A DNA stretch of 64,000 bases. It comes from a virus. The notes under the pieces are model-generated. The model had not been told where the DNA came from and made no database searches. It was given only the letters and a program-made list of their open reading frames with translations. Where the stretch lies: IMG/VR virus record IMGVR_UViG_3300045988_168112; one strand, given 5' to 3'. Both the position numbers and the translations under genes were made by a program. The first letter of the stretch is position 1, and every line of letters starts with the position of its first letter. Below are positions 1-64,000 of the stretch, piece by piece.

Positions 1-3000
1 CAGAATAATTGTTAAAATATTTATACTGGTCGCTTATTGCATTATTACTATAATATAAATCTGATGAAGTGAATGTCCAAGCATCATTAACTGAATAATA
101 TCTTCTTACTTGAGTTGCAGTCCAACATATTACAGCATCAATTACATAATGTATATATGTAATTACGGGAAGTTTAGTGCTATCAAAATTATATACGGGA
201 TGACTTATTGACACACCAAGATATTTTGTCATTGCATTTGTACTTACATAAATTGAACTATTATTATACCATAAATTAGTTTCATCTTTTTTATATAATT
301 TAGCTATATAATATGTTTCAAATGAACTACCCGACAAATAAACAGAACGTCCTAATGTATAGCTTTTTGTACCAGTAGTTACGAAAAATACAATACCAAA
401 AGAATTACTAACAGCATATAACTTACTTTCTTCACTCGCTAAATTCACAATACCCGTATAAGCACCTTTAAATGGTTTATAATAATTATCTATATATGAA
501 TAATATTGTTCCACTCTTCTATTGCTCACCCACACCCCTACCTTTAGAGCCTCTATTGTTATGGACTGGTCTTTGATGAGGGAGATTGCAGTGGTGGAAC
601 GGTTCGGATAATTCCAGTCTCCTGTTCCGTTTCCTCCCCATGTCGTGCTTCCTCCTGCTTCCCACCAGTAGTTGCCCGGCTTTATTGTCAGTACCACCTG
701 TCCGCTCGTATTTGTAGTGCCGCTATATGCAGTGCTGGTATTGTTACTTGACAGCTTCACTATTACACCACTTCCTACACTTGTTCCTGTACTCGCGTCC
801 TTTACGGTTATCGTTATCGTCACCTCACTTGGTACCAGCTTGATTGTAAAATTAGAGGTGTTCGTGTTCGTCGTGTTCAGTGTCACGTATCTTGTCGCAC
901 TTACCACGTATCTCATTGTTGTTCCAGATACATATATAGTTGCTTGTCCAGAACTGTTCGTCGTTACAGTCTGCGTAGCATAATTATTAGAATCTGAACT
1001 ATCTCCATTAATACCATATACCTTTATTGTCGCACCACTTACAGCCGCATTTGTATAGCTATTCTGTACAGTCACTACAATACTCTTTATTGCAGTAGAA
1101 TAAAATGCTGTAGCGTCACTGTTATGTCCTATATTGCTAAAATTATAATTAGGGGTGATGTTGTATGTCGTTTCGGTCGTTGTTGTGCCAGTCACATAAT
1201 AACTTGCCTTGTATGCAGCTATATTTGTCGTTATACCTGCAATGAATGTATATGTTCCATAATAATATACCGTTTTAGCAGAATTTTGAGTGAGTGTGAC
1301 TGTTGTTGCCACTCCTGCTGTTGTAAATATAGGCTTCACTAATGTGTTTACTCTCCACCATCCTAATAAAGGAGTAGAAAGCGGCACCCTTATTCTGAAT
1401 ACAACTGCTACACTCTTCGTTAATCTTACAGCATTCTGTGTAGTTGTTGCTGTAGGCATTGTTATTGTCGTGCTTCCGTTTACCCAATAGCTTGTACCTC
1501 CACCCCATGATAATGTATATGAACCTGCTATCATAGGGCCGAATGACACTTGACCGCTACTATTCGTCGTTCCAGCAAACGTGACAGATGACAAACTCTT
1601 GTTCGTCAATGTAACCGGACATCCGTTCGCATTCCCTTTTACTGCATTCTGATAATAGTCCTTCATCGTTATTGTGATAGAAGAACTTGTCTCGCTCATT
1701 TTCAGATTAAGAGGACTTGCCTGCGTTGCCGATAATGTACCGGATAACGCATTGTAGTTCGTTTTTGAAAATGAATATCCTCTATTGATACCGCTTCTAT
1801 ATACAGTCCAATTACCACTACTATCCGTTGTCCCTGTCTGTCCTAAATAAGAACATGATACTCCGCTTATATTCGTTCCATAATTAGAACTCTTTATGTT
1901 GAATGTCAGACGTGCTGTTACATTCAGTGTCATAGTCCAGGATTGATTTTCAGATACCCATGTCCATTCCTGGCTTGCATTACTGTAATAACTTGCATTG
2001 TTTTTCGGTGTATAGGTGTAGTTTATTCCAGCATATACCGTATTTGTTTTCTTTCCGCTCGCATCCAACGTTATTTCTCCTGCCGGGGCATTCGAGCCTG
2101 TAGGTACACTTCTGACTATCACTGCACTACCTAACGGATGGGTTGCTGTGATGTTTGGAACTTTCTCAACGACTGTCAGTGTAACCGTTCTTGTCGTTCT
2201 GTTCATCGTCACTGTATAAGGTGATGTCTGTGTGGCAGTCACTGTTCCTACGTAGTTGTTGAAATACTGTGCCGTGGCGGTCATTTGTCTATCTAATCCA
2301 CTTCTGTAGAAGCTTCCTCCGGATGGAAGTGTTTGACCGAAATAGGTAATTGTTCCAGAAAGCGCATTACTTGTATTGTAAATATTTGCTACTGTATTAA
2401 TCACTATCTTTTGGTTGCAAATCAATTGTATTGTCCGCACTTGTCCTGCTGCCGTATAAGTCAGTGCAGTATTTGGATTACTGTAATAATTAGGTCTTGT
2501 TACTGGTGTGAATGTTACTGGTGTACCTAAATAACATACAAACGATACATTGCCGTTCGTATCTAACGTTAATGGGCTTGTAGAAGCTGCCGGACTGAAA
2601 TTCATCTTCATGGATGAATAAAGAGCTACAGTCCATCCAAACGTATTAGACGGAAATGCTTTTCTTGTTATTGTAACAGCATCAGTCGATTCATTATTAT
2701 ATACGTTAATATTATTACTTCCATTACTAAATAAGAAATCTTTATTTGCAGAAACCATTTTGTCTACAGTACATATTTGGGTTATTTCTGCATACGATTT
2801 ATTCTGCGAATTACTTCCACTGATATCAAATACTGATGCTGTATCTATCTGCCATGTAACTGGCTTACTTCCTCCATCTAAATTAAAGAAATTGGTTGTA
2901 CTGAAAGAACCAGAAGCACCACATCTTATATAATGAGCATACCAAGTCCATACACCTGTTCCTTTATTATCTGTAAGCCATCTTCTCGTTGCACTCCCAC

Positions 3001-6000
3001 CTGTTCCGGTTGCATTACTCTGAAAAAACAAACTATATCCAGTAGGAATTTTTGCATGGAAAAACACTACAAATTCCTTATTAGCTGCTGTTGGCGTACC
3101 AAAATAAAAACCTCCTAATCCCGGACTTGTTGCTCCGGTAGAAGTCTTTATTTCCAAAACATACTGTGATTTGAATAACACTTCTTCACTCACTCCAAGA
3201 CTTACTGTAGCAGTTGAACGCGTCATTACCGCGTTGAACGGAGACGCGGTATCTGATGTTATACTGCCTCTATAATTACCGTGATATGTTGCTGTAATAT
3301 CTACATTTCTGGTTACAGAACTTCTATATAACGATACGTTGCCACTACTATCCGTCGTTCCTGTCTGATGAAAATATGACACAGTAGCACCGCTCAAATT
3401 TGTTCCGCTTGGCACGTTCGACTTGACATTAATTGTTATTTTTGCCGTTACAGTCAAATCCATAGTCCATGACTGATTGGCGGCCGTATAGGTGTGTTTC
3501 TGTGTCGGATTGCTGTAGAATTCCGGATGTCCTACTACCGTAAACGTCATTTCCGTACCTATATATCCATTGAATGTCACTGCACCGCTTGCATTCGTTG
3601 TAAGTGTTCCGGTCGCACTTCCTGCTGTGTATTTTATCTGTAAGTTCTGATAATAAGTTGTCTGTGCTGGCGTTATTTCTCTTACTACAAGTGTAACCGG
3701 ATTAGCGGCACGTGTCATTACGATATTGAACGGTGAAGTAGAATCGAACCTTATCTGACCTGTATAAGATTCAAGATTTGCAGCACTCACCGATATATTA
3801 CGAGGGTCTGAACCGCTCCAGTAGAACACTGCGTTTCCGCTTGCATCCGTCGTTTTTGTCTGAGTAAAATAATTTACTGTTGCACCTTGAATGTTTTGCC
3901 CTGGTACATTATCTTTCACATTTACAGTTATCTGTTTCGCACAAGTGAGATTCATGTTCCATACTTCACCTGCCGTTGTAAATGTATGTGTTTGAGTTGG
4001 ATTACTATAAAATACCCTTCTATTTTCTGCAATTACTGCAAATGTAATCGGAATACCTAAATACGCCTCAAATGTATTTGTTCCGCTCGTAATCGTTCCA
4101 TTACCTGCTGCCGACGTGTAACTTAATGTAAAATTATACCCACCATCCAAAATTACACTTGCACCACCCGGTATCACTTCATATTGCTGTACTGTCACTA
4201 CATGCTTATTTCTTAGCATCGTAACATTAAGCGGTGAAGCTGTAGTAGGAGCAATGGTTCCGTTTACCGTGCTGTAATCCTCCTTGTCTAAAGAATAATC
4301 CTTTTCCAGTGCTGACCGGAACAATGAAGCGTTTCCGCTTGCATCCGTCGTCACCATCTGTTCGTTGTAAGTTACCGTTACTCCTTGGATATTGTTTTTC
4401 GCATATACATCCTTTACATTAACCGTTATCTTTGAGGTCACGTTCAAATCGAATGGCCATATCACACCATCTTCCGTCCATGTATAGGATTGTGTCGGAT
4501 TGCTGTAAAAGCTTGGGTATGAATCAGTCGTGAACGTGTATTCCAGATTTTTTATCAATAACTGGTTGGTATAACCGTTTTCATCCAAAGTCAGCTTTAT
4601 CGTTCCTGCCTTGGATGTCATTGTAATGGTCTGGTTTGACAGATAAGCTCTTCCTGCCGTACCGTACACCTCCGAAACCTGAATACCTGCATTAATCAAT
4701 TCATATTGCACTTCTACATCCAACACTGTACCACTTTCACTTTGGGGATGTGAGAACGTATCGGATGAAACCTCGCCTGCAAGAACCTCGTAGGTGTATT
4801 CTCCTACCGGAACATTCGGCATGACTATCGTTCCTTCCGTATTCGTCTCTCCCTCGAACACCATGTCCGGCAATACATTGTTTGTTACACGTACCAAAAT
4901 TCCATCCGGTGGTAAAACTCCCTGTGTTGATACATGGAAAGTAACTGGATATTCCTTTGCTTCCAATTCAATATCCATTCTTGTTTCTGTTCCGGTAGGT
5001 TTGAAATTCCCAGTCTTTGTGTTGTAATGCTGCTTGCTTACACTGTAAGACATATTTACTGGAGAAATGTACATTTGCACTATTCCATCCGTATTCGTCG
5101 TTCCTGTCTGATTGACGGACATCCCACTGAATGTTACTGATGCACCGCTTAACTCACCGTATAAATTAGAGGTGATATATACCGGAATTCTCTTCGAGCA
5201 TGTATATACAAGGTCTTTTGTTTTTGTGTCAGAATAATTTAACGTCGCTACGGCTCCGTTACCTTCGTAAAAAGTGACTGGCTGTATCTGGAAACGCTCT
5301 GCAATACCTGCATACACGGTTTTTACAAATCTTCCGTTTGCGTCCGTCGTTACATTATCACCGGATGATTCGCCATTATCATTGTAATAACATGCAAGAA
5401 TCATCCCGGCTTTTACCGGATTTGCTGTTGTCGTGGAAATAGAAGGTATTATTTCCTTTACCGTATAAGTGACTGAAATCGTTCTTCTTACTACCGTGGG
5501 GGAAATCGTATTGTTTACCGGAAGAACAATATCCCATGTTTTGTTATTAAAATTACTGTTTCCTCCTCCGAATGTGATATTATATCTTCCTGGGGGTATG
5601 TTGAACTGTCCGTTTCCTTTGGATGTAAATACACCATTTTCATTAGTTGTTCCGGTAAAACTATATGCTTGTGATGGTGTGCCGCCCCAATTACTCACGG
5701 CTGTTACTGGACAGTTTACTGCTACCGATTCATAAGGCTCCATGCTTTTTAGGTTTACGGTCATTGTTATTTCCGCATACCCCATGATTATGTCTATATA
5801 ATCGGCTGACAATGGAGGTGTAAACGTACCTGTCTTGTCCGTATGGTCTGCTACTGTACATTCATAGCTCATTGCAATAGGTGAGATGTACACGCTTGCC
5901 GAACCGTCACTTCCGGATGTCACTGTTTGAGGCAAAGACATTCCGGACACGGTTATTTCCGCACCTTCAAGCGGTCTTAACGTGTTCTGCTGTTTTACCC

Positions 6001-9000
6001 TTAATTCTACTTTCTTTGAACATGTGATTTCCATAAGCGTAGGTACACTCGCTCCGAAACCCCAATTCTTAATCAGTAAACCGTTGTTCTCATAGAAACC
6101 TTTCTCTTTTATTGTCAACTGATAATCAATACCCGGCATTACTTCCGGAAATATCTTTCCTGCCGCATTCGTCGTATATTCTCGTACATTATCGTTGAAC
6201 ATGTTCTTTACTGAAACAACAATTCCAGCCTTGACCGGATTGAAGTTCAGAGCGGCTTTCTGTTCGGCAGCTATCTTTACAGTTACCTGGCTTACCGGAG
6301 TCGTTATCGTCACATCCACATAGAAAGTTCTCGGCTGTGCATCACGTGTCACATTCGGCTGCACTGTCAACATCGTACCTTCCAAAGAAGCTATTTCGTC
6401 ATTTGACACGTTGAATACCAATTCTGCACCTCCGCTTGCAAAATCATATGGCTCGTCCTCACCGCCAATTTCTGCACGTCGAAAAGTTTTTACATGTTCC
6501 ATCAAATCAAACGTCACTCCTTTGTTAGGAACAACGAAGTTTTCCGGTGTATGAACTATGTAATAATAACTGTCATTAGATAACGTCTCAGTCGTATTTT
6601 CACCACTGAATCTTACTGTAGTAGCATCACCGGACACACCGGGAATATTCTCTATTACATCAACTTCCGGTTCGATTTCCCTTCTTGTCATAGTAAAAGG
6701 AAGGTCTATATCCTTCAATTTTTCAAGCGTTATCGACTGGTTTTCTACCGCATCATAATATCTGTGTGTCGCATTCCAAGTGTATTCCCCTGCTTCCGCT
6801 CCAAGCTGCAATACGCCTATATCATTCGTATAACCGGAATCCACTTTAATTCCGGTCCCCTTGTTTATCAATTCGATATATACACCGGAAATAGGAGTCT
6901 TCGTTATCGCGTCCGTTGCAGTGTATGTTATTACAGTATCTCTCAATTCAAGATAAATAGTTTCTACAACATCTTGGTCTTTAATTACAACTTGTCCAGT
7001 GTATCTTTTATAATTTCTTTGAGTAACTACATAATCATGAGTTCCATTACCAAGAGTTACAGTTGCTACACCATTTATATTTGTAATTTTTGTTTCTTCA
7101 TTGATATTCAATTCAGCACCTTGAATATAATTACCATTCTCGATATCACGAACAATTAGTTTTAATGTATAGAATGCCTTGTTTAATTTGATAATCTTAG
7201 ATATAGGTGCATCATCCACAACAATAAAGTCTGAATACGACATATAACCGCTTCTAAACACTGTATAAGTAAATGTACCGTTCGGTAAGCTTACAATAAC
7301 TACACCATGTTCGTCTGTTAGATATGTAGATTCGTTAATTGAAACTGTTGCATTAGGAATCACCATATCATTTTCTGAATCAAGAACAGTAAATTTAACC
7401 TCATAGGGAATAGCATCAAGCTCAACAAGAATACAATTCGGTTTTTCTCCTACTATATCAATTGTTTCGTTGTACTCTTGATATCCTTCTTTCATTACAC
7501 GCATCTCATATTGACCTACCTGAAGTCCCATTTGAGCTTGTCCTTCATTGTCAGTTCTTTGAGTTGTATTTGTAACTGTAATATCTGCTTGAGGTACATA
7601 AATACTTCTTCTTCTATCAATAACAGCGAAATTGACTGTCAATGATTCAAGAAACATTCTTTCAAAGATTTCTACTGGTTTATTTTCAACAGTCAAAACA
7701 CTTTCAATGGTTTTAAATCCAGCTTTTGATACTGTATAACTATATGTTCCAGGTTCTAAATCTACAGAAGCTATACCTGTATCATCAGTTTCAAGAGTAT
7801 TAATTCCAATCTTGATTTCTGCACCTTCCATAGGAGCTTCACCTTCGTATATCGTGAAAGTCACTTTATAAGGGGTTGCTTCAAAATTATTAATCGTTAT
7901 AAAAATTGGACCATTTAATACTACAAATTCACCAGTCTGTTGAATCCAGTTTGCTTTATTCAATGTATATGTATATTCACCATTTTCAAGTAATACGTTA
8001 GCAGTACCAGATTCATCTGTTGTAATAACTTTGTTCCCAATAGTAATAAACGCACCAGGAACTGCAACATTCTTCAATGTAGTTACAGTAAATGAAACAA
8101 GATATTTCTGAGAAAGAATTGCAGATTGTGAACCTTTATAAATATCACTCTCTCCTGCTGGATAAAAAATATTAGAAAGACTACTACCAGAATCATATAA
8201 AATGTTTCCTTCCAAGTCTCGCATTCTGAATCCTTTGATACGAGGTAACATATTCAAAGGAACTTCTTCGTCAAAGTAAGGAAAGAAATATTCATCCGGC
8301 ACATATTTCACACCTTCCGCAGTTTTAACGACTTGAAGTAAATCATCCCATTGTACAACTTTTCCTGCTTCCCAAAAACGGAAATCAAGATACTTCGTCA
8401 TAGCAATTTGGATATTCTTTCTTGCATCAGCAATATTTATATTAGGAGATAATTCAACACGGAAATCAATACCTTGTTCTCCTCCAACATACATCCATTT
8501 TGCATTTTCAAGAATAATACCTACTGATTCACCTGATAAATTTAATTCAGTTAAACCAAAATAAGGAGTAGCTTTTTCAAGTAATTCTTCAAGCTCATCA
8601 TCTGTAAAGAAAGAACCATTCTGAGTTACAAGATAAATATGAGTCTTTCCATCTTCACCTAATCCTACATTCATAACCTTCAGAATTCTATCATCAAGGT
8701 CTTGGAAAATCTGTGTCCAAGATTCCACTGTTTCTTCTGAAAGTCTGTTATTGTAATTTATAATTCTGTTTCTAAAAGTCTCGTCATCTTCATAATCACG
8801 TCCACCAATAGCTGCATATTCGTTAGTACATTCTATATGCGTCAATGGTCTTGGAGAAACTTGTGTAATACTATTAGCTTCTACATTCGTAGCAGAACCA
8901 GTGATTACACTTCTTACACTTACATATCCATAACCAGAATTATCAACTGTAAACGGTTTATCTACAACGAATCTGATACCATTCTTAGAAATAAAAGTTG

Positions 9001-9319
9001 TACCTACTTCATATAATGTTCCAGGTTCAGCATATACTCTTATATAAGTAGATGAGCCAAGAGCTTGTTTTCGAGGACTTACACCAAACAATGCTGCTGA
9101 TTTATCCAGATATGTACCAGTTGCAGATGTAGGAAATATCTGTGCTTCTACAATAGCAATATCTTTAATTGCTTTTTGAGCAACTTTTGCAGTACCAAAT
9201 GCAACTGCATTCAACACTGAACCATCTGCTATGTTAGAAACCTTATCTGTTTTGTTTAAAAACATTTCAATCCACAAATTCTTCAGATTTGCGATTGTGT
9301 TACTTACCTTTGTTATCAT
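1..9319 (-). CDS. Giant baseplate-J-like / tail-fibre fusion protein, truncated by the window edge (>3,106 codons visible)
   Basis: Hand translation of the minus strand from ATG 9319 (6 nt after the upstream TAA at 9326-9328) stays open down to nt 2 (9319 nt = 3106 codons + 1 nt). It is missing from the ORF track only because its stop lies left of the window. The N-terminal ~390 aa carry baseplate J/gp6-type strings (ATGTYLDKSAALFGVSPRK; ECTNEYAAIGGRDYEDDETFRNRI). The rest is tandem beta-sandwich repeats. Confidence 0.85.
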   Translation of the reverse strand, partial: MITKVSNTIANLKNLWIEMFLNKTDKVSNIADGSVLNAVAFGTAKVAQKAIKDIAIVEAQIFPTSATGTYLDKSAALFGVSPRKQALGSSTYIRVYAEPGTLYEVGTTFISKNGIRFVVDKPFTVDNSGYGYVSVRSVITGSATNVEANSITQVSPRPLTHIECTNEYAAIGGRDYEDDETFRNRIINYNNRLSEETVESWTQIFQDLDDRILKVMNVGLGEDGKTHIYLVTQNGSFFTDDELEELLEKATPYFGLTELNLSGESVGIILENAKWMYVGGEQGIDFRVELSPNINIADARKNIQIAMTKYLDFRFWEAGKVVQWDDLLQVVKTAEGVKYVPDEYFFPYFDEEVPLNMLPRIKGFRMRDLEGNILYDSGSSLSNIFYPAGESDIYKGSQSAILSQKYLVSFTVTTLKNVAVPGAFITIGNKVITTDESGTANVLLENGEYTYTLNKANWIQQTGEFVVLNGPIFITINNFEATPYKVTFTIYEGEAPMEGAEIKIGINTLETDDTGIASVDLEPGTYSYTVSKAGFKTIESVLTVENKPVEIFERMFLESLTVNFAVIDRRRSIYVPQADITVTNTTQRTDNEGQAQMGLQVGQYEMRVMKEGYQEYNETIDIVGEKPNCILVELDAIPYEVKFTVLDSENDMVIPNATVSINESTYLTDEHGVVIVSLPNGTFTYTVFRSGYMSYSDFIVVDDAPISKIIKLNKAFYTLKLIVRDIENGNYIQGAELNINEETKITNINGVATVTLGNGTHDYVVTQRNYKRYTGQVVIKDQDVVETIYLELRDTVITYTATDAITKTPISGVYIELINKGTGIKVDSGYTNDIGVLQLGAEAGEYTWNATHRYYDAVENQSITLEKLKDIDLPFTMTRREIEPEVDVIENIPGVSGDATTVRFSGENTTETLSNDSYYYIVHTPENFVVPNKGVTFDLMEHVKTFRRAEIGGEDEPYDFASGGAELVFNVSNDEIASLEGTMLTVQPNVTRDAQPRTFYVDVTITTPVSQVTVKIAAEQKAALNFNPVKAGIVVSVKNMFNDNVREYTTNAAGKIFPEVMPGIDYQLTIKEKGFYENNGLLIKNWGFGASVPTLMEITCSKKVELRVKQQNTLRPLEGAEITVSGMSLPQTVTSGSDGSASVYISPIAMSYECTVADHTDKTGTFTPPLSADYIDIIMGYAEITMTVNLKSMEPYESVAVNCPVTAVSNWGGTPSQAYSFTGTTNENGVFTSKGNGQFNIPPGRYNITFGGGNSNFNNKTWDIVLPVNNTISPTVVRRTISVTYTVKEIIPSISTTTANPVKAGMILACYYNDNGESSGDNVTTDANGRFVKTVYAGIAERFQIQPVTFYEGNGAVATLNYSDTKTKDLVYTCSKRIPVYITSNLYGELSGASVTFSGMSVNQTGTTNTDGIVQMYISPVNMSYSVSKQHYNTKTGNFKPTGTETRMDIELEAKEYPVTFHVSTQGVLPPDGILVRVTNNVLPDMVFEGETNTEGTIVMPNVPVGEYTYEVLAGEVSSDTFSHPQSESGTVLDVEVQYELINAGIQVSEVYGTAGRAYLSNQTITMTSKAGTIKLTLDENGYTNQLLIKNLEYTFTTDSYPSFYSNPTQSYTWTEDGVIWPFDLNVTSKITVNVKDVYAKNNIQGVTVTYNEQMVTTDASGNASLFRSALEKDYSLDKEDYSTVNGTIAPTTASPLNVTMLRNKHVVTVQQYEVIPGGASVILDGGYNFTLSYTSAAGNGTITSGTNTFEAYLGIPITFAVIAENRRVFYSNPTQTHTFTTAGEVWNMNLTCAKQITVNVKDNVPGQNIQGATVNYFTQTKTTDASGNAVFYWSGSDPRNISVSAANLESYTGQIRFDSTSPFNIVMTRAANPVTLVVREITPAQTTYYQNLQIKYTAGSATGTLTTNASGAVTFNGYIGTEMTFTVVGHPEFYSNPTQKHTYTAANQSWTMDLTVTAKITINVKSNVPSGTNLSGATVSYFHQTGTTDSSGNVSLYRSSVTRNVDITATYHGNYRGSITSDTASPFNAVMTRSTATVSLGVSEEVLFKSQYVLEIKTSTGATSPGLGGFYFGTPTAANKEFVVFFHAKIPTGYSLFFQSNATGTGGSATRRWLTDNKGTGVWTWYAHYIRCGASGSFSTTNFFNLDGGSKPVTWQIDTASVFDISGSNSQNKSYAEITQICTVDKMVSANKDFLFSNGSNNINVYNNESTDAVTITRKAFPSNTFGWTVALYSSMKMNFSPAASTSPLTLDTNGNVSFVCYLGTPVTFTPVTRPNYYSNPNTALTYTAAGQVRTIQLICNQKIVINTVANIYNTSNALSGTITYFGQTLPSGGSFYRSGLDRQMTATAQYFNNYVGTVTATQTSPYTVTMNRTTRTVTLTVVEKVPNITATHPLGSAVIVRSVPTGSNAPAGEITLDASGKKTNTVYAGINYTYTPKNNASYYSNASQEWTWVSENQSWTMTLNVTARLTFNIKSSNYGTNISGVSCSYLGQTGTTDSSGNWTVYRSGINRGYSFSKTNYNALSGTLSATQASPLNLKMSETSSSITITMKDYYQNAVKGNANGCPVTLTNKSLSSVTFAGTTNSSGQVSFGPMIAGSYTLSWGGGTSYWVNGSTTITMPTATTTQNAVRLTKSVAVVFRIRVPLSTPLLGWWRVNTLVKPIFTTAGVATTVTLTQNSAKTVYYYGTYTFIAGITTNIAAYKASYYVTGTTTTETTYNITPNYNFSNIGHNSDATAFYSTAIKSIVVTVQNSYTNAAVSGATIKVYGINGDSSDSNNYATQTVTTNSSGQATIYVSGTTMRYVVSATRYVTLNTTNTNTSNFTIKLVPSEVTITITVKDASTGTSVGSGVIVKLSSNNTSTAYSGTTNTSGQVVLTIKPGNYWWEAGGSTTWGGNGTGDWNYPNRSTTAISLIKDQSITIEALKVGVWVSNRRVEQYYSYIDNYYKPFKGAYTGIVNLASEESKLYAVSNSFGIVFFVTTGTKSYTLGRSVYLSGSSFETYYIAKLYKKDETNLWYNNSSIYVSTNAMTKYLGVSISHPVYNFDSTKLPVITYIHYVIDAVICWTATQVRRYYSVNDAWTFTSSDLYYSNNAISDQYKYFNNYS
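560..8150 (-). repeat. Tandem carboxypeptidase-regulatory-like / Ig-like beta-sandwich domains (>25 units) inside the giant fibre gene
   Basis: Recurrent ~80-90 aa units ending in T-[TD]-[DN]-x-x-G-x-[AV] ... G-x-Y-x-[YF]. Examples: TDESGTANVLLENGEYTYTL, TDDTGIASVDLEPGTYSYTV, TDNEGQAQMGLQVGQYEMRV, TDEHGVVIVSLPNGTFTYTV, TTDASGNASLF, TTNSSGQVSFGPMIAGSYTL. Confidence 0.7.
3337..4354 (-). repeat. ~165-166 codon super-repeat of the fibre (FYSNPTQ..T..W.M.LT..KITVNVK..TTDASGN), three best-conserved copies
   Basis: Exact 23-nt identity gcgtttccgcttgcatccgtcgt at 3831-3853 and 4329-4351 (offset 498 nt). A diverged copy ends at 3358 (offset 495 nt). Further YYSNP/TTDSSGN copies occur near 1810-1830 and 2000-2500. 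Confidence 0.7.
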
Positions 9320-9325
9320 AACATG

Positions 9326-55532: not shown

Positions 55533-55744
55533 TTAGGGCATTCTGCCGATTTATTACCTTTAGTATCTGTGTATGTATAGATACTTTCTCCTTTTGAGGA
55601 AATCACATCGACCATACAGCCGCACTTCGTACACTTTCTATGCGCATTGTTAGGGTTGTTTATCCATCTATGCCCTTTTCTGTTTTCTGCGCCTAACTTT
55701 GTTCCTCTATTAAATCCCATAATCACACCCTTTCCCGTAAACAT
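55523..55744 (-). CDS. Small zinc-ribbon protein
   Basis: ORF track. Cys pairs CTKCGC ... CPNC. Confidence 0.5.
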   Translation of the reverse strand: MFTGKGVIMGFNRGTKLGAENRKGHRWINNPNNAHRKCTKCGCMVDVISSKGESIYTYTDTKGNKSAECPNCI

Positions 55745-56237
55745 TTACGAACTCGCTGACATCCATATAGTCTATGCCAAAATTCTCGGCTGTTTTCTTG
55801 TCACTGTCTGAAAACTGCCCTTCGAGGCCGCTTGCATCACCAATCATTAAACAATCTTCTACCTCCAAACTGAAATCTTTCCATGTATTGTAATTATCAA
55901 AAAGTTCTTCAAGCATTCCGGTATTTGGCTTTCTCATAGGGTTGCTTCTGTCATTGCTTCCGCAATACTTAAAACGCGTATCAATGTCGCAATAATCCAT
56001 TATACTGTAACTCACGTACTCACATTTTACATAAATAAATGATTCTGGAACCAACCCTTTTTCTATCCCTCCCTGGTTTGTCACGATAAAAATTTCTTCG
56101 GGATTCAAATTCTTTATTGCATCCATGACATCAAACTTAAATTTCATGTCCCATATCCCCTTTGGAAACGTCTCACCACTTGCAGTTTCTATTAACGTGC
56201 CGTCCATATCACAAAATAAAACCTTGTACTTTTTCAT
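55710..56237 (-). CDS. HAD-superfamily phosphatase (subfamily IIIA; GmhB/HisB-N/PNK-3'-phosphatase-like)
   Basis: Motif I FCDMDGTLI, motif II IVTNQGGI and motif IV MIGDASG..SDSD. Confidence 0.7.
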   Translation of the reverse strand: MKKYKVLFCDMDGTLIETASGETFPKGIWDMKFKFDVMDAIKNLNPEEIFIVTNQGGIEKGLVPESFIYVKCEYVSYSIMDYCDIDTRFKYCGSNDRSNPMRKPNTGMLEELFDNYNTWKDFSLEVEDCLMIGDASGLEGQFSDSDKKTAENFGIDYMDVSEFVNVYGKGCDYGI

Positions 56238-56924: not shown

Positions 56925-57116
56925 TTAAACCTCCACTTTTGTATAATTACTAAACTTACAATAAAGATATTCGCTTGAAAACCATCCTAATTGATGTTTA
57001 TCATTAACATATTTACAATAGGTTTCCCATTTGTCCTTGTGTACAATCTCATACATTACGCCTTTGTACATAAACAAATCCCCTTCTTGTAAATTTGAAA
57101 TCTTAATTGTTTTCAT
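56925..57116 (-). CDS. Hypothetical protein
   Basis: ORF track. Confidence 0.5.
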   Translation of the reverse strand: MKTIKISNLQEGDLFMYKGVMYEIVHKDKWETYCKYVNDKHQLGWFSSEYLYCKFSNYTKVEV

Positions 57117-57427
57117 ATTAACCCAATCCTCTTTAATCTTTTTCTAAAATTCTTTTCATTCAAAGCTTGTTCGTAATAGCAATCCGGCTCAATAACTGTT
57201 TTAGTTTTCATTATAGGTTTCCCGTTTAATCCAATTGAAACTTCGTTGGTAATAGAAGCTCTCTTTATCTCTTTCGTTTTCAGATTGAATGAAAATAGAA
57301 TATGACCCGGAATCTTTTTCTTCTTATCCGTCAATTTATATTCATGCTGTTTCTTTTGAACATATTCTACCTGGTTTTTAGATAGACCACCCTTTGTTAA
57401 ATCCGGAACTATTTCCATATCAATCAC
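57113..57427 (-). CDS. Hypothetical protein
   Basis: ORF track. Confidence 0.55.
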   Translation of the reverse strand: MIDMEIVPDLTKGGLSKNQVEYVQKKQHEYKLTDKKKKIPGHILFSFNLKTKEIKRASITNEVSIGLNGKPIMKTKTVIEPDCYYEQALNEKNFRKRLKRIGLI

Positions 57428-57593
57428 CGTTTAAAATATACAACAACTCTCTTGCTTTCCTATAGGTATCAAAACCTTTTACATTCACCCATTCGGATGA
57501 AAGACGTTTGTCTTTTCTTACTTGTACGCAATACACGACTATCGGAATACACCCGCTATACCTTATTTCTTTCACAATCCTATATCTTTCCAT
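57420..57593 (-). CDS. Small ORF (57 aa) below the track cut-off
   Basis: Hand translated: MERYRIVKEIRYSGCIPIVVYCVQVRKDKRLSSEWVNVKGFDTYRKARELLYILNGD. It fills the gap between two track ORFs with an 8-nt overlap. Confidence 0.4.
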   Translation of the reverse strand: MERYRIVKEIRYSGCIPIVVYCVQVRKDKRLSSEWVNVKGFDTYRKARELLYILNGD

Positions 57594-57594
57594 G

Positions 57595-57894
57595 TCAAAT
57601 ACAGTTTCTTATAAACGTTTCCTTGTCAATCATACCGTTCTTTGATTCTTCCACCAAGTCAAAAAATGTATCAGCAGAACAAACATGCTCTTCTATCATT
57701 ATACATATTCCATCACCGGGATAATATTCACACGAAACATCATCACTCCAATCTATATACTTTTGTGCTTCTTTGACTATATCGTAACAATCAAGCATAT
57801 ACCCTTGATATTTAATAGAAGCTTTCCTTATTTTGTCAAATACATTTCCTTTCATATTTTCAATCTCCTTTCTATCACTCAATACATAAAACAA
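57595..57894 (-). CDS. Hypothetical protein
   Basis: ORF track. Confidence 0.55.
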   Translation of the reverse strand: MFYVLSDRKEIENMKGNVFDKIRKASIKYQGYMLDCYDIVKEAQKYIDWSDDVSCEYYPGDGICIMIEEHVCSADTFFDLVEESKNGMIDKETFIRNCI

Positions 57895-58129
57895 GTCCCC
57901 TACGTATCATATCTTCCAACTCTCTTTCGGAAAACTCATCGAACGAATGTTTGTCCATAGTGCAGAAATGATACCTTACAGAATGCTTTTCATAATCAAT
58001 GTTTTTATGATAATCAATCATTACATCACTTATAACCGTTTCGATAATCTTACCGTTTACAATAAAAGAAAAACGTGTTCCGACATCATAACACACCTTC
58101 TTAAACAAAAGAACTTTCCTTTCATCCAT
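57875..58129 (-). CDS. Hypothetical protein
   Basis: ORF track. Confidence 0.55.
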   Translation of the reverse strand: MDERKVLLFKKVCYDVGTRFSFIVNGKIIETVISDVMIDYHKNIDYEKHSVRYHFCTMDKHSFDEFSERELEDMIRRGLVLCIE

Positions 58130-58130
58130 T

Positions 58131-58376
58131 TTATTTCAATTTTTCTTCAAGTTCAGCAATTATACAATCTGCATCACCGCCATGTACCCAGTCCTCCAGT
58201 ACAGAAGACAAAGCTTCAATAACTTTCTCCTTCTGCCATTCGGCACCACTATTAAAACCATTAGCAATCATTTCCTTGATGTCAGAAATTCTATTCGGTA
58301 CCCCACATGTTCCAAATGAGCGAATAACCGATTCGGCATATTCTATTGACGCCTTTTTAATAATCTTTTCTGTCAT
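58131..58376 (-). CDS. Hypothetical protein
   Basis: ORF track. Confidence 0.55.
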   Translation of the reverse strand: MTEKIIKKASIEYAESVIRSFGTCGVPNRISDIKEMIANGFNSGAEWQKEKVIEALSSVLEDWVHGGDADCIIAELEEKLK

Positions 58377-58382
58377 AATACT

Positions 58383-58601
58383 TCACTTTTTAGGATTATT
58401 GTTACACTTTTCAACAAGTTGAAGATTCTGTGGAAGGAATGTCCTTAATTCGCCATCTATCTCAAGATGATAATACTTCGTACTTCCAGTTCCACATATA
58501 CTTGCTATTCTACTCACTTTACCTACCAACATCAAATTTGAACAATGTAGGATTTTCACTCTATCTCCTACTCCAAAGTTCTGATTCTTTGATTTTGCCA
58601 T
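58383..58601 (-). CDS. Small beta-rich protein (SH3/KOW-like, tentative)
   Basis: ORF track. Contains FGVGDRVKILHCSNLMLVGKVSRI. Confidence 0.5.
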   Translation of the reverse strand: MAKSKNQNFGVGDRVKILHCSNLMLVGKVSRIASICGTGSTKYYHLEIDGELRTFLPQNLQLVEKCNNNPKK

Positions 58602-58742
58602 TGTTTATAATTGTTTAAAAGGAAAACTGTTCAAGTTTGCAGTAAATTAACAAATAAGTTGGATTGAACAAAATAAACAACTTGAAACAATTTTCCTTAT
58701 TTGATAAAAATACAATTTTGTTATCAATTAAATGATTTGAAG

Positions 58743-59273
58743 TTACTCGATTCCTTTTAAAAATGAGACATCTTCAAGCTGCTCACTCATCCGCATTATT
58801 CGAAGAATCTTCTCCCATTTTTCAGGTGTCATTTCTGTATCATCTGATTCTACATTCTCACTGAAGATATCGTGTTTATTCAGGAATGCTTCATACAAAT
58901 TATCCATCATTGACTTAACCTCTTTCTTCCATTGTTTGGAATAAAACTCATACATTTCTTTAACTTCAATGTATTCAGCATCAGTAAGTTCGATAGAAAT
59001 GAAAGTTTTATATTTATTGGAGTGATATGTAATAGAGTCTTTGTTCAAAACCTTATGTACACATTGGAATAGAAGTTTCCGAGCATATGTATTAGAATAT
59101 GGTAATTTGAAACATCTCTCTTCTTTCTTTTCATTAAATAGAGTTTCGATATCCAATCCATTAGCCAAACATAACGCATCTAAAGCTCTTTTAGCTGCTA
59201 ATGCTTCACCCATCTCACCTCTTTCTACAAGAGCTTGAAGTTTCTTAGCTTTTTCGAGTATCTTCCTATCCAT
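58743..59273 (-). CDS. Hypothetical protein (N-terminal helical region resembles DUF2786-type proteins)
   Basis: ORF track 58743..59330. The extension covers a promoter, so ATG 59273 (MDRKILEKAKKLQALVERGEMGEALAAKRA) is preferred. Confidence 0.5.
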   Translation of the reverse strand: MDRKILEKAKKLQALVERGEMGEALAAKRALDALCLANGLDIETLFNEKKEERCFKLPYSNTYARKLLFQCVHKVLNKDSITYHSNKYKTFISIELTDAEYIEVKEMYEFYSKQWKKEVKSMMDNLYEAFLNKHDIFSENVESDDTEMTPEKWEKILRIMRMSEQLEDVSFLKGIE

Positions 59274-59298
59274 AATATTTCTTCTTTTTTTTGAATGC

Positions 59299-59330
59299 TT
59301 AAAGATACACCTTTGGACCACGCGGTCCAA
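59299..59330 (-). promoter_or_regulatory. Bacteroidota-type promoter
   Basis: Coding strand reads TTGG-N19(ACCGCGTGGTCCAAAGGTG)-TATCTTTAA followed by GCATTCAAAAAAAAG. The spacer holds the palindrome GGACCGCGTGGTCC. Confidence 0.65.
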
Positions 59331-60039: not shown

Positions 60040-60468
60040 CTAACACGTAATAAACTCTTCAATTTTAGTTTCTTTTATGTCAACAACACGCGTCTCACTG
60101 AGAAAATCCTGATTTAAAATCTTACTCATCATTTCACTTGCTTTTGTAGAACTTTCAGATTGAATGAGGTATTGTATCTTGTTTTCTTTCACTTTACCTC
60201 TCATATCGGTCTCAAACCATAATCCTTTACATAAGAACCATAATCCTTTTCCTGAATGGACGCCAGAAATATTTATTTCTTTAATAGGACTAATATCGAA
60301 CTCAACATCGATATTCTCATTGCCCCACTTAGTAGCAATTGCTTCTGCATCAGTGTAATTAACTGCTGAACAAGCAATTACATTCTGACACTTTTTCATT
60401 CTCCTATTTGTAGAATTTTCATCTTCTGCCCAATAAGAGATAGTTATTTCAAAGTACTTGTGCAACAT
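60040..60468 (-). CDS. Hypothetical protein with in-frame 7-codon tandem duplication
   Basis: ORF track. KGLWFLC-KGLWFET is encoded by a 14-nt exact repeat at 60215-60228 and 60236-60249. Confidence 0.55.
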   Translation of the reverse strand: MLHKYFEITISYWAEDENSTNRRMKKCQNVIACSAVNYTDAEAIATKWGNENIDVEFDISPIKEINISGVHSGKGLWFLCKGLWFETDMRGKVKENKIQYLIQSESSTKASEMMSKILNQDFLSETRVVDIKETKIEEFITC

Positions 60469-61241
60469 CTTCTTAGATAATCGACATTCTTTTTGATTAA
60501 TTCAATATCTTCTTCTTTCACCTCTTTTTCAAAATAATCTGGAGGTGTAGGTATTCTCTTGAATGTACCTTCTTTCTCAATCTCCACACCGTGCAACGCT
60601 GACAAGATAGGATAACAACTGTCAGTTGACCTTATTGCAATATGATTAGTATTATAACACCTGAATTCTATTGGATTTCCTTGTCCTAAAAAATGCAATG
60701 GTTTACGTAGCAAGTCTTGCTCCTCAAGTTTCATGACCAATAAAGTCCTTGCTTCTGCGATATCCGGATTCTTCATAATGTGAGGAATTGCTTTCTTACT
60801 CATACCGATACAAGAAACAAAATCGTTATGCAAGAAATACTTGTAACATTCCATCCAATCTTCATAAGTATCACCTTGTGGACATGCAAGAATGTTAGTC
60901 CTCTTATAGAGGAAACCTTTTCTTCTTGCATCCTTCATCCATTCGAGGAATTGATTGAAGTTATTCAGCGTTTCTTCTTTATTATAAAGAACATCAAGAG
61001 GTATTACTTCATTAGGTTGAATTTCAAGTGTCAATTTGAGTAATTCTTTGTTAGTCAATATTTCACCTTCATCTCCAACGCCTGAATCAAGTATGGTAAA
61101 TCGACCTTGTTTGATAGCATTCTTTGTATATTCGCGATACTTTTCGTTTCTTTTATAAAGTTGTCCAAGTATATAGAAATTATTATCCCCTAATTCACTC
61201 AATTCCAAATGATTCATAGGTGGTGTAACGAATATTTTCAT
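60444..61241 (-). CDS. tRNA-guanine-transglycosylase-fold protein, DpdA-like (candidate DNA 7-deazaguanine transglycosylase)
   Basis: FTILDSGVGDEG (TGT DSGG-like), LHFLGQGNPIEF (compare LMGVGKP) and IRSTDSCYPILSALHG (compare DMFDCV.PTR.ARNG), in the TGT order. 265 aa, so no tRNA-binding extension. Confidence 0.5.
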   Translation of the reverse strand: MKIFVTPPMNHLELSELGDNNFYILGQLYKRNEKYREYTKNAIKQGRFTILDSGVGDEGEILTNKELLKLTLEIQPNEVIPLDVLYNKEETLNNFNQFLEWMKDARRKGFLYKRTNILACPQGDTYEDWMECYKYFLHNDFVSCIGMSKKAIPHIMKNPDIAEARTLLVMKLEEQDLLRKPLHFLGQGNPIEFRCYNTNHIAIRSTDSCYPILSALHGVEIEKEGTFKRIPTPPDYFEKEVKEEDIELIKKNVDYLRRCCTSTLK

Positions 61242-61246
61242 AACTT

Positions 61247-62194
61247 TTAATTATTAAATTTGATTTCTACCTTATTTTCTAATTCTGGTGCTGTCACAAG
61301 ATAGATAATGAAATCTTTAAGACCTATTTCAGCATCACCTTTTTCAATCTCCTCAAAAGAGTATTGTTCATTCTTTATTTCGTTTGATACTTTCTCAAAA
61401 CGTTCTCTTCTTGTCTCTTCTTTCACAGACAATACAGTAACTGTAAAGTCAACTTTAGAAGAATTTTGAACTAATGTCTCTATAATCTTATTGAATAGAC
61501 TTTTTTGTCTACAACCTACAATATATATCTTATTGATAGATTGTAGGTTCCATTCAAATAAAATCTTTGAACATATTCTTTCACAAAGTACCTCACTAAG
61601 GCCTGAGTCGAATGTCCTCATTTCAGAATAGGTCAATTTACGAACTATATCACCAACTTCAATAACACTATCATTCTTTTGCTTCACTTTATTCACATAT
61701 GTGGTTTTACCTGAGAAAGCTTCACCTACTATAAACTCAATCTTAGGGAGTTCTATTATTAGCTTTTTAAATGCTTCATTGAAGTTTTTGGGTTTTTCTT
61801 CAGTAGAATCATCTTTTACTTCCATTTTCTCAACTATAGCGTAATTTTCACCATCTTCACTGACCTCAACTGAGTCAAAATCAAATTGCTTCAAGATATT
61901 TTTTGCAATCATTTCACATGACATAGAACCAAAATCATAACATTCGCAACCTGATTCAAATACTGGGAATTTTCGGTTTATATATTGTTTTACTTTTCTC
62001 CTTAGCAATATAAACTCTTCATCACGATTATCGTGATTAACCCGTTTTTTACAATTGAATTTAAAGATATGTCTGTGAGGTTGTTCCAAGAACTTCACTA
62101 ACTCACCATGATTTTTTGATGCATCAGGATAATTATGAAATCCTTCTACTTCAAAACGAATTCCGATAGATGTCTGTAATTTGTTCATAATCAA
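61247..62194 (-). CDS. Fusion protein: N-terminal T-fold QueD/PTPS-like domain (tentative) and C-terminal P-loop NTPase/kinase
   Basis: N-terminus: FEVEGFHNYPDA...FLEQPHRHIFKF...DRDEEFILL...SCEMIAKNI. C-terminus: Walker A GEAFSGKTT. Confidence 0.45.
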   Translation of the reverse strand: MIMNKLQTSIGIRFEVEGFHNYPDASKNHGELVKFLEQPHRHIFKFNCKKRVNHDNRDEEFILLRRKVKQYINRKFPVFESGCECYDFGSMSCEMIAKNILKQFDFDSVEVSEDGENYAIVEKMEVKDDSTEEKPKNFNEAFKKLIIELPKIEFIVGEAFSGKTTYVNKVKQKNDSVIEVGDIVRKLTYSEMRTFDSGLSEVLCERICSKILFEWNLQSINKIYIVGCRQKSLFNKIIETLVQNSSKVDFTVTVLSVKEETRRERFEKVSNEIKNEQYSFEEIEKGDAEIGLKDFIIYLVTAPELENKVEIKFNN

Positions 62195-62442
62195 TAAGTT
62201 ATTTTAAAACGTCTTTTAATCACTTCTTTATCTGCAATACCGTAGACTAAACAATAATCTTTCTTTTTCTTCTGACAAAATTGAACTGGACCTCTGTAGA
62301 TACACTTACCGTCAAGAAAAAGTCTCATAATCTTTTCACCATTGATATTCTTATTCCTTGAAGCTTGCTTTATCACTTCAGGAGAAACTCTGTCAATCCA
62401 ACCATTTTTATGATGGATAAATGATTTTAACTGTTCATCCAT
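62191..62442 (-). CDS. Hypothetical protein
   Basis: ORF track. Confidence 0.5.
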   Translation of the reverse strand: MDEQLKSFIHHKNGWIDRVSPEVIKQASRNKNINGEKIMRLFLDGKCIYRGPVQFCQKKKKDYCLVYGIADKEVIKRRFKITY

Positions 62443-62519: not shown

Positions 62520-64000
62520 TTATCTCAATTCGCATGCACCACCTGCACAAGCAGTCGCTACATTCTCGCCTACATTCTTATATTCTTGTTCCCATTCGAC
62601 ATTCTCCCAATCAATAGGTTTTTGATTCTTAATCTTCTGCCATTGATGGAATATATTCACATGTTTTAAGCAACGTGAGCATTTTTCATCATCACCCTCA
62701 AAATAATTCTTAGAGAACTTCTTGAATCTACGGACCCAATCATTCCTCATTTCAATTTTGTGTTGCAAATAAGAAGAAATTGCATTGACGTCACTGATAC
62801 ACAATCCATCTATAGTCACAAGAAGTTTACCATCTTTAATGTGTTTTTTGATAAATGAAAGTAGATAATCGTCAGTATAGATTAATAAGTCATTAGCCTT
62901 ACCAGTCGCTGCATTACAAGCTGTCCATATATCACCAAAAACTTGTAATCCATCTACAATAAGACCTGAAGAAAGAATTGCACCTTGTCCATATGTATCA
63001 GCAAGCTCTTTTTCATCAAGATAAGAAGTGTAAGGAGCTTGTGGATAATCGAGGTCACCAGTTTCAGGTAGGAAACTCAATCCACAGAATCCATCTTTGT
63101 GTTCCCATATCCAATCTGCAATTTCACTCCACTCATCTTCTTTAACTGATACTGTACAACTTACATTGTGATGATATTTAGGTTTAGCTATTGAAGATGG
63201 ATGCTCTGTATTAGTACCTTCTATAATCCAACCTTTCTCAGTAGTATAAATTCTATAAAGAAAATCAAGAGTACTGAAATCTGTACGAACCATTGTTTCA
63301 TCATCGAGTTCAATAGGGAAAGATAATACAGTTTCGCCTTTCTTGTTCCAAAATGAAGGATTTGCAATATCTGGATTCAATTTAATAACTTCTTTCAATG
63401 CCTGCTCATTGTTATTCGCTTGAATATTACGAATATACTTACGAAAATGATAAGCATGAATACCAGAGCCGCATCCAAGCAATTGTGACGCGTTTCCTGA
63501 AGGTTTGATTACGGTCGTTCTTGCTGCAGCATTTATTCCAATAATCGCAGCAACTTCTTTATTCACTTCTTTTACGATTCTTGCACCTTTTCTTTGTATT
63601 CTTTCATTAAAAAGAATATTAGGATTATCTGCCATGCCAGTGATACCAACACCAAGTAACGCATCACGCTTCATTATCTTACGTGTAGCTTCTGAAAGTA
63701 ACGGTAGATTTTCAGTATAAGCTGCTTGAAATGTACCTAATATAGCTGCTGCACGACATGCTTTATAGAAGTCTTCTTCGGTTTTGACTTTCTTTCCATT
63801 AATTTCACAAAGGTTACAAAAACTAAAACCATATTCTTTACTACCATCAGGATTTGTATAAGTTGGATATAACAATGCTTCTGCACAAGGATTTATGACT
63901 GCTTCAGTGTCAGGCATGAATAATAATCCTGGTTCTCCATATTGTTTGATATATTCAAATATCTTGTCGTACTTTTCTTTAGGAGTGTCTTCGTAGATTG
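62520..64000 (-). CDS. nrdJ: Adenosylcobalamin-dependent ribonucleotide reductase, class II (monomeric RTPR type), 5' end outside the window
   Basis: The frame stays open upstream of M63917 to the window edge (..YGEPGLLFMPDTE, RNR GEPG motif). Also INPCAE, TTVIKPSGNASQLLGCGSGIHAYH, and a C-terminal redox pair CAGGAC (compare CEGGAC of the Lactobacillus enzyme). Confidence 0.85.
   Translation of the reverse strand, partial: IYEDTPKEKYDKIFEYIKQYGEPGLLFMPDTEAVINPCAEALLYPTYTNPDGSKEYGFSFCNLCEINGKKVKTEEDFYKACRAAAILGTFQAAYTENLPLLSEATRKIMKRDALLGVGITGMADNPNILFNERIQRKGARIVKEVNKEVAAIIGINAAARTTVIKPSGNASQLLGCGSGIHAYHFRKYIRNIQANNNEQALKEVIKLNPDIANPSFWNKKGETVLSFPIELDDETMVRTDFSTLDFLYRIYTTEKGWIIEGTNTEHPSSIAKPKYHHNVSCTVSVKEDEWSEIADWIWEHKDGFCGLSFLPETGDLDYPQAPYTSYLDEKELADTYGQGAILSSGLIVDGLQVFGDIWTACNAATGKANDLLIYTDDYLLSFIKKHIKDGKLLVTIDGLCISDVNAISSYLQHKIEMRNDWVRRFKKFSKNYFEGDDEKCSRCLKHVNIFHQWQKIKNQKPIDWENVEWEQEYKNVGENVATACAGGACELR

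Follow-up and report, generated by a model that had tools for sequence, protein, structure and literature searches.

The DNA analysed here, a 64,000-nt stretch from a virus (IMG/VR record IMGVR_UViG_3300045988_168112; below, the window, to whose positions coordinates refer unless a contig is named), carries on its minus strand a gene pair resembling part of the DNA hypermodification system of Cellulophaga phage phiST, in which deoxyguanosine (dG) is replaced by 2'-deoxy-7-deazaguanosine (dDG). With a probability that we put at about 0.82, the locus represents the insertion half of such a phiST-type dDG system in an abundant, uncultured gut phage. The pair consists of open reading frame (ORF) B (60444..61241, minus strand, 265 aa), encoding a transglycosylase of the DpdA3 family, and of ORF C (61247..62194, minus strand, 315 aa from TTG), encoding a DpdL domain fused to a kinase-like domain. 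Systems of this kind were published in 2023 (PMC10516641, Nucleic Acids Res), and the locus is a member with a variant architecture. In that study the phiST protein CGPG_00065 was named DpdA3, described as a distant homologue of tRNA-guanine transglycosylases (TGT) and DpdA (HHpred, 98.8% to PF01702) and proposed to insert a 7-deazaguanine base. Replacement of dG by dDG was measured in phages phiST, phi13:1 and phi19:2 (302,000 per 10^6 nt in phiST), and DpdL, a QueD paralogue in which LxxxHRHxF replaces the CxxxHGH of QueD, was proposed to decarboxylate 7-carboxy-7-deazaguanine (CDG). In the literature, we found DpdA3 or DpdL only in that article, and no paper on gut phages with this system. 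The first-pass annotation of the window, made from its letters alone, had proposed a DNA 7-deazaguanine module; that overall reading is supported, whereas the earlier description of the system had escaped it. What is new here is a conserved set of DpdA3 partners, namely a kinase, a pyrophosphatase and an AAA_28 protein.

ORF B had been read as a minimal DpdA-type enzyme from three short strings shared with the TGT catalytic barrel. These are indeed present and in order, LDSG (aa 51-54, nt 61080-61091), LGQGNP (aa 185-190, nt 60672-60689) and DSCYP (aa 207-211, nt 60609-60623), an arrangement absent from all 200,000 shuffled versions of the ORF B protein. Orthology to phiST DpdA3 bears the reading out: ORF B and CGPG_00065 share 38.5% identity over 97% coverage (pairwise E 1e-56), and tblastn against phage genomes retrieved phages phiST, phi13:1 and phi19:2 with the same identity and coverage (E 2e-47), followed by Chryseobacterium phage MA9V-3 (35.5% identity) and a group of Bacillus phages (24%). 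ORF B also falls into phrog_20335 (1.4e-54), the PHROG of phiST DpdA3. Its AlphaFold2 model (pLDDT 93.9, pTM 0.91) was compared with 350,542 PDB chains using Foldseek, and the best 50 matches were all TGT, ArcTGT, QTRT1 or DpdA structures (best E 1.5e-6; DpdA 7ui4 2.5e-5; probability 1.00, TMq 0.43-0.64).

From 67 clusters of ORF B homologues, 50 were aligned. Invariant among these 50 are D52, D83, P121-Q122, G146/S148/K149, H183/L185/G186 and R204/D207/S208/C209, which in the AlphaFold model lie at or just past the C-terminal ends of the barrel strands, where the active site of a TIM barrel is expected. Going by motif, D52, D83, Q122, L185-G186 and D207 are the putative counterparts of D102, D156, Q203, G230/L231 and D280 of Z. 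mobilis TGT. The protein ends about 50 residues past the last barrel strand, and the features of a canonical TGT (PF01702) are absent: it has no Pfam match, no CxCxxC motif and no C-terminal Zn (CxCxxC...H) subdomain. These data support ORF B as a minimal TGT (beta/alpha)8 barrel of the DpdA3 subfamily. Its TGT fold could in principle serve queuosine manipulation on host or phage tRNA instead of acting on DNA or DNA precursors. We consider this very improbable, as ORF B is devoid of the Zn subdomain and of tRNA-binding parts, has orthologues in phages with fully modified DNA and is located among replication and nucleotide-metabolism genes. Net charge and isoelectric point of DpdA3 were uninformative as hints of DNA binding, since E. 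coli Tgt is equally acidic. A profile search against 1.84 billion representatives, with clusters at 50% identity, showed the DpdA3-like family to be large (4,243 clusters at E <= 1e-3, 2,544 at E <= 1e-10). Some DpdA3 relatives carry LAGLIDADG endonuclease fusions, and one relative has an intein within the barrel (proteins P0153, P0157, P0179 and P0254).

The gene upstream, ORF C, probably starts at the ATG at 62188, which gives a protein of 313 aa; gene callers use the equivalent ATG in relatives. The first-pass annotation had seen in it a QueD-like domain joined to a Walker A kinase-like domain, and both halves do match phiST genes as well as the corresponding folds. The N-terminal DpdL domain (aa 8-123, 61826..62173, minus strand), a QueD/PTPS T-fold, belongs to phrog_17812 (7e-30), and residues 10-123 share 43% identity with DpdL of phiST, CGPG_00067 (E 5e-27). 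The DpdL signature LxxxHRHxF is present as LEQPHRHIF (aa 36-44, nt 62063-62089). Across 24 homologues, L36, H40, R41, H42 and F44 never vary, nor do H20, E17 and E116, and the Zn-ligand histidines H20, H40 and H42 are thereby retained. Unlike QueD proper, with which it shares its fold (Foldseek to E. coli QueD 4ntk and 3qn9, TMt 0.62-0.71, with 0.67 for 4ntk), the domain lacks CxxxHGH and has Leu36 in place of the catalytic Cys.

The C-terminal domain of ORF C (aa 148-313, 61256..61753, minus strand) is an adenylate-kinase-like P-loop domain related to phiST CGPG_00066 (phrog_19196), with which residues 151-304 share 28.6% identity (E 2e-10). It keeps the motifs of adenylate and UMP-CMP kinases: the P-loop, here a Walker A GEAFSGKT (aa 157-164, nt 61703-61726), G-D-x-x-R as GDIVR (61640-61654), G-x-R as GCRQ (61505-61516) and R-x-x-R as RRERF (61397-61411). 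S161, G162, K163, R229 and R265 are invariant, and R185 and R262 occur in at least 90% of homologues. A PDB profile search aligned the whole domain, with all four motifs, to the AMP-bound AdkA-like protein 3lw7 of Sulfolobus (E 1.2e-5), and Foldseek likewise gave 3lw7 (3e-7), UMP/CMP kinase 1uke and AK1. Compared with the kinases themselves, it stays below all Pfam kinase thresholds (AAA_17, 14.1 bits against 27; AAA_18, 13.6 against 29.4). The P-loop domain thus appears to be kinase-like, with the fold of a nucleoside monophosphate (NMP) kinase, outside any curated family. Its most likely substrate is a guanine or 7-deazaguanine nucleoside monophosphate.

Foldseek also placed the polynucleotide kinase 4gp6 of C. 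thermocellum close behind the NMP kinases, and the phage encodes an NAD-type ligase and a PNK3P phosphatase of the HAD type (PF08645, 1.3e-21; 55710..56237, minus strand), which stands alone, separate from any kinase domain, 4 kb downstream of the module. The P-loop domain might then be a polynucleotide 5'-kinase that heals, with PNK3P, the nicks left by base exchange. In T4 Pnk, however, D35 is the essential general base of the D-x-x-R motif, and the corresponding Asp is not conserved here, N, E, K, A or S taking its place at position 182. A phosphate acceptor is thereby favoured over the hydroxyl acceptor of a kinase like Pnk. As the best profile match over the whole domain is moreover the adenylate-kinase relative with bound AMP, we regard the polynucleotide kinase as unlikely.

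A disordered linker (aa 126-145) joins the two domains in the AlphaFold model of ORF C (pLDDT 86.5). The fusion is maintained in nearly all 81 homologue clusters, down to 31% identity, at lengths of 293-320 aa with both halves covered, and in all gut relatives retrieved; a BFVD fold search returned generic kinases and one fused homologue only. The first-pass annotation had not recognised this fusion from described clusters, and rightly so. In phiST, DpdL (CGPG_00067) and CGPG_00066 are separate adjacent genes, and CGPG_00066 was set aside in PMC10516641, other 7-deazaguanine phages being said to lack homologues; the words kinase and phosphoribosyl are absent from the main text of that article.

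Genes for synthesis of the base were sought in the window by tblastn with phage homologues and by Pfam searches on 61 ORFs, and FolE, QueD, QueE and QueC were not found, in agreement with what had been noted for FolE, QueE and QueC. One explanation offered then was that the pathway continues past the ribonucleotide reductase (RNR) gene, and it does so in same-species genomes. IMG/VR contig 3300045988_153617, with 96.4% nucleotide identity to the window, served for a rightward walk past the window end. A second cluster lies there, about 25-27 kb right of the window end, with genes for QueD (PF01242, 2e-20), QueE (radical SAM, phrog_2076, 5e-50), FolE2 (PF02649, 3.5e-62), a MazG pyrophosphatase and a P-loop protein of the AAA_28 type, for which PHROG (phrog_2107) gives the label 'thymidylate kinase'. 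The QueD/PTPS protein of this cluster has CRENLHGH, with four residues between Cys and His. The same cluster, with 99-100% QueE identity, is found on 14 human-gut contigs, 11 of which measure 96-108 kb, and divergent versions occur on relatives in the group with 48% DpdA3 identity. Depending on the strain, the slot between QueE and MazG is filled by FolE2 (L110:2582-3514), a Zn-independent type IB cyclohydrolase, or, in many of them, by type I FolE (L112:3206-3835), an in-situ non-orthologous displacement; two QueD alleles, only 54% identical, also exist among strains. Of the genes to be looked for right of nt 64000, FolE/FolE2 and QueE were therefore recovered whereas queC was not. More broadly, Pfam and tblastn detected no QueC, QueF, phosphoribosyltransferase (PRTase), formyltransferase, amidotransferase or DpdN in the window and in the same-species loci walked over about 37 kb past its end, a combined coverage of about 101 kb for a genome estimated at about 102-106 kb.

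This gene content suggests the following pathway. Guanosine triphosphate (GTP) would be turned into CDG by the FolE2 or FolE, QueD and QueE of the phage, with the chemistry established for queuosine synthesis. Next, the carboxyl group of CDG would be removed by the DpdL domain to leave 7-deazaguanine, as proposed in PMC10516641, and DpdA3 would exchange guanine for this base through an Asp nucleophile of the TGT type, for which D207 and D52 are candidates judging from fold, motifs and the chemistry of phiST. As a result dG would largely or wholly give way to dDG, the nucleoside measured in phiST, which would make the genome resistant to G-reading restriction enzymes. Because QueC is missing and the QueD-like domain is a DpdL, the expected base is 7-deazaguanine and not preQ0, so that, of the outcomes first envisaged, that of a different base is also to be expected; and as the gene content equals that of phiST, dDG is the predicted product. 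Another 7-deazaguanine might be inserted all the same, such as CDG, the ADG amide as in Campylobacter phages or preQ0 from the host, with DpdL otherwise employed, given that its decarboxylase activity is a proposal only and that DpdA3 relatives elsewhere serve dADG, fdPreQ1 and probably preQ0-derived bases. Yet the DpdL signature combined with the lack of QueC matches the three Cellulophaga phages with measured dDG, and neither an amidotransferase nor QueF or DpdN is encoded in the loci examined. We hold insertion of another such base to be improbable.

The likeness to phiST thus extends over orthologous DpdA3, DpdL and CGPG_00066 in the same order, and over FolE, QueD, QueE and a MazG-like protein (CGPG_00068 in phiST); both genomes have a GTP cyclohydrolase and no QueC. 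In contrast to phiST, the gut phage splits these genes into two clusters about 27 kb apart, uses FolE2 or FolE according to the strain and has additional AAA_28 and DUF4494 genes. PhiST is marine whereas the host here is found in the human gut, and the system is known here from its genes alone whereas the DNA of phiST was measured.

Comparison of DpdA3 loci from other phages revealed a kinase-like domain with DpdA3 in at least ten lineages, where it is a separate protein or part of a fusion with DpdL, with DpdA3 itself or with an HD hydrolase. In most cases a nucleoside triphosphate (NTP) pyrophosphatase and an AAA_28 protein are present as well. The order DpdL - kinase - DpdA3 is formed by separate genes in phiST, MA9V-3 and loci L154 and L156, and with DpdL and kinase fused in the gut group and in L155. 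MazG and the kinase stand beside DpdA3 in phiST, while MA9V-3, L154 and L155 combine the kinase with a pyrophosphatase of the DCD/dUTPase type, L155 having a PRTase as well. In protein P0170 the kinase domain is attached to the C-terminus of DpdA3 (hhalign, 100% for the DpdA3 part; 98.7%, E 3e-16, for the kinase part), and its cluster (L162) reads dUTPase/DCD - QueC - AAA_28 - DpdA3::kinase - FolE - QueE - QueD, with no DpdL. The DpdL of MA9V-3 (L008:10647-11528, XQU63047) corresponds to the C-terminal 113 aa of an annotated protein of 293 aa, the Cys-rich N-terminal half of which resembles an HNH-type homing endonuclease; this may be a fusion or a run-on annotation.

The same partners surround DpdA3 relatives in phages with other 7-substituents. 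Campylobacter phage CPt10 belongs to Firehammervirus, as does the dADG phage CP220 (PMC10516641). Its DpdA3 relative gp055 (hhalign 99.1%) is preceded by a fusion of an HD phosphohydrolase with an AAA_33 kinase, the latter aligning to the kinase domain of ORF C (89% probability, E 2e-6), and followed by an AAA_28 protein 29% identical to that of the gut phage (E 1e-18). The cluster of Flavobacterium phage immuto_2-6A, whose DNA carries 100% fdPreQ1 (PMC10516641), holds a PRTase, DUF4494, an NTP pyrophosphatase, DpdA3 (hhalign 99.4%) and AAA_28. With its sister immuto_3-5A, this phage provides the equal-best matches of the gut-phage AAA_28 among cultured phages, identities to the AAA_28 proteins of CPt10 and immuto_2-6A being 29-34%. 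CPt10 and immuto_2-6A thus share DpdA3, an NTP phosphohydrolase and AAA_28 with the gut phage. They differ from it in that neither cluster showed a DpdL next to DpdA3 and neither phage was hit in a tblastn search with that domain, and in the kinase, which is fused to HD in CPt10 and was not found next to DpdA3 in immuto_2-6A. In the Bacillus phage group (BSTP10), a P-loop 'thymidylate kinase' directly precedes the DpdA3-like gene. Large Bacteroides phages (DAC19, L161, 62250-62804; DAC22; SJC03) also have members of the AAA_28 family labelled 'thymidylate kinase', as have 89 records of Streptomyces phages, among them Samisti12, whose gp171 (L160) lies near MazG and a DnaE polymerase.

Two conclusions follow from these arrangements. 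Three folds without relation to one another, MazG, trimeric DCD/dUTPase and HD, occur in the pyrophosphatase position, and such non-orthologous displacement argues that the activity itself is required. As for the kinase, an attachment to the decarboxylation chemistry of DpdL was considered and rejected, because the same domain occurs with DpdA3 in clusters that contain QueC and in clusters that lack DpdL. Its association is with DpdA3 and not with the decarboxylation step.

These partners bear on where guanine is replaced. By homology with DpdA1, DpdA2 and bDpdA, exchange may take place on replicated DNA, to which we give an even chance; the kinases, with the PRTase in two lineages, would then recycle the released guanine to GTP for FolE. 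The same genes could alternatively yield the same final DNA by replacement in the nucleotide pool, before replication. In that case the NTP pyrophosphatase, MazG here, would turn dGTP into dGMP and so remove the canonical competitor. The base would be swapped by DpdA3 at the mononucleotide level; alternatively, a PRTase would load it onto phosphoribosyl pyrophosphate and the phage RNR would reduce the product of that step. The AdkA-like kinase and AAA_28 would raise the modified deoxynucleoside monophosphate (dNMP) to the triphosphate (dNTP), to be incorporated by the DnaE-type polymerase of the phage. Such a route would employ every conserved partner and account both for complete replacement, which occurs only in DpdA3 phages, and for the failed reconstitution discussed below. 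Complete replacement is typical of pool-level systems such as those for hydroxymethylcytosine (hmC) in T4 and dZ in S-2L, and 7-deaza-dGTP is a good polymerase substrate. The route is also favoured by the accessory set, which is the same whatever base is made (phiST, MA9V-3, L154, L155, L162, CPt10, immuto_2-6A, BSTP10), by a pyrophosphatase activity argued to be necessary across its three folds and by the reduction of DpdA3 to a bare barrel of 265 aa. On the other hand, every characterised TGT or DpdA acts on polynucleotides, and we know of no TGT-fold enzyme that exchanges bases on mononucleotides. The kinases and PRTase are equally readable as a salvage loop from guanine to GTP for FolE, the substrate of the kinase is a putative one and nucleotide-metabolism genes cluster in large phages anyway. 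Replacement in the pool is therefore a tentative proposal, to which we give somewhat less than an even chance; if true, it would make mononucleotides a new class of substrate for the TGT fold.

Comparison with better-known systems sets both possibilities in context. DpdB is an ATPase required by DpdA in bacterial systems. The genes dpdA, dpdB and dpdC are implicated in the bacterial modification (PMC10164549). The bacterial Dpd, DpdA1 and DpdA2 systems share with DpdA3 the TGT-fold exchange of G for a 7-deazaguanine, as the match of ORF B to 7ui4 illustrates. They differ in size and in extent of modification: bDpdA has 413 aa compared with the bare barrel of 265 aa that is linked to complete replacement, and according to PMC10516641 bDpdA and DpdA2 modify less than 0.1% of G and DpdA1 0.1-30%, complete replacement being seen only with DpdA3. 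To the systems of S-2L/phiVC8 (dZ) and T4 (hmC), the likeness lies in the combination of a dNTP pyrophosphatase, an enzyme making the modified dNMP and a dNMP kinase. The dZ system relies on PurZ, MazZ and DatZ, and that of T4 on dCTPase, dCMP hydroxymethylase and the dNMP kinase gp1. This is a functional analogy only, as the key enzymes are not homologous and the central enzyme here has a TGT fold.

Several points weigh against the interpretation of the locus as a dDG system. In E. coli, dpdL together with dpdA from phiST or ACP17 yielded no dDG (PMC10516641), an expression made without the partners described above. ORF B by itself matches nothing in Pfam (E <= 1), in NCBIfam or in the PDB by phmmer or profile search, and hhalign against the single E. 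coli Tgt sequence gives only E 0.24, pairing no more than PQG with QGS and HFLGMGdP with RYLMGVGKP of Tgt. As the sequence libraries are empty in this respect, the relationship of ORF B to TGT is drawn from the link to phiST DpdA3 and from the fold comparison, and its catalytic residues were matched from motifs, without superposition. The activities assigned to DpdA3, DpdL and the kinase family are all predictions. The Que genes were seen in genomes of the same species, at 96.4% nucleotide identity, and not on the window's own contig, a metagenome scan for the cluster having returned other contigs. Lastly, exchange on DNA leaves the conserved NTP pyrophosphatase unexplained.

In the part of the window from 56 to 64 kb, every gene lies on the minus strand and the genes are closely packed. 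They are transcribed in the order class II RNR, 83-aa ORF, ORF C, ORF B and ORF A. The class II (B12-type) RNR gene (62520..64000, minus strand; RNR_Alpha, RNR-II_ins_dom) is represented by its C-terminal two thirds and exits the window; a break near 63917 was suspected and ruled out, the frame being open to the window end and matching the 774-aa gene of relatives. The conserved 83-aa ORF (62191..62442, minus strand), the stop of which overlaps the start of the fusion gene, keeps its position in the divergent relatives L019-L029 (49-61% identity) and had no family match in Pfam, PHROG or further sequence library searches. ORF B starts 5 nt past the end of ORF C, and its own end is overlapped by 25 nt by the start of ORF A (60040..60468, minus strand), a DUF4494 protein of 142 aa (PF14902, 1.9e-17). 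In each of the gut relatives (L002-L029) a DUF4494 gene comes immediately after DpdA3, and the short DUF4494 gene of immuto_2-6A (L159:4549-4746) is weakly similar to ORF A (E 3e-4). DUF4494 is thus a possible further accessory component of the DpdA3 system. No terminator-like site was seen between these genes on the coding strand, and a promoter/terminator scan gave nothing above chance.

The DpdA3 module is 95-99% identical between the window and strains L002, L003 and L005, and the small-ORF region downstream of it, at 57000-59300, is hypervariable in the same comparison (89-92% identity, with gene gain and loss). Elsewhere in the window, a single ORF of more than 3,108 codons (2-9325, minus strand) adjoins the virion genes and exits the left end; stop-codon recoding had been suspected for the seemingly ORF-less first 9.3 kb and was ruled out by this single uninterrupted frame. 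Within 9326-59876, Pfam matched, in one ORF each, an ADP-ribosylglycohydrolase (4e-24), a NUDIX protein (4e-16) and a PBECR1 nuclease (1.6e-10), all three possibly involved in counter-defence or host takeover, and in addition a BACON domain.

Proteins identical to ORF B appear in 217 blocks of the assembly collection, and the longest of the contigs read measure 100-106 kb. The carrier is an abundant, uncultured human-gut phage with a genome of about 102-108 kb. The module has relatives in Bacteroidota phages, which together with the BACON domain hints at a Bacteroidota host. When 6 kb were compared by megablast with 50,697 phage records, no match emerged, and we found no cultured relative; a protein of the virion region has distant relatives only, all of them in uncultured human faecal phages. 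In same-species genomes the DnaE polymerase is split and contains an intein with an HNH domain (L110:5399-9902), and one strain has an intein in a UvrD-like helicase (L004:3467-5815). A TnpB-like gene (OrfB_IS605 with a Cas12f-like TNB domain) is located near terminase and primase/helicase genes (L120, 1-9600, equivalent to about 92-101 kb of the window).

The analysis predicts that a phage present in hundreds of human-gut metagenomes carries 7-deazaguanine in place of G. Such DNA would affect restriction, and possibly evasion of CRISPR, in gut communities rich in Bacteroidota, as well as nanopore and PacBio base-calling and the cloning of DNA from gut viromes. Acting as Rosetta stones, the fusions point to a partner set that provides a concrete reason why reconstitution of DpdA3 and DpdL in E. 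coli failed. Whether complete replacement is achieved on DNA or by way of the dNTP pool becomes directly testable, and given the size of the DpdA3-like family (thousands of clusters), the answer would apply widely.

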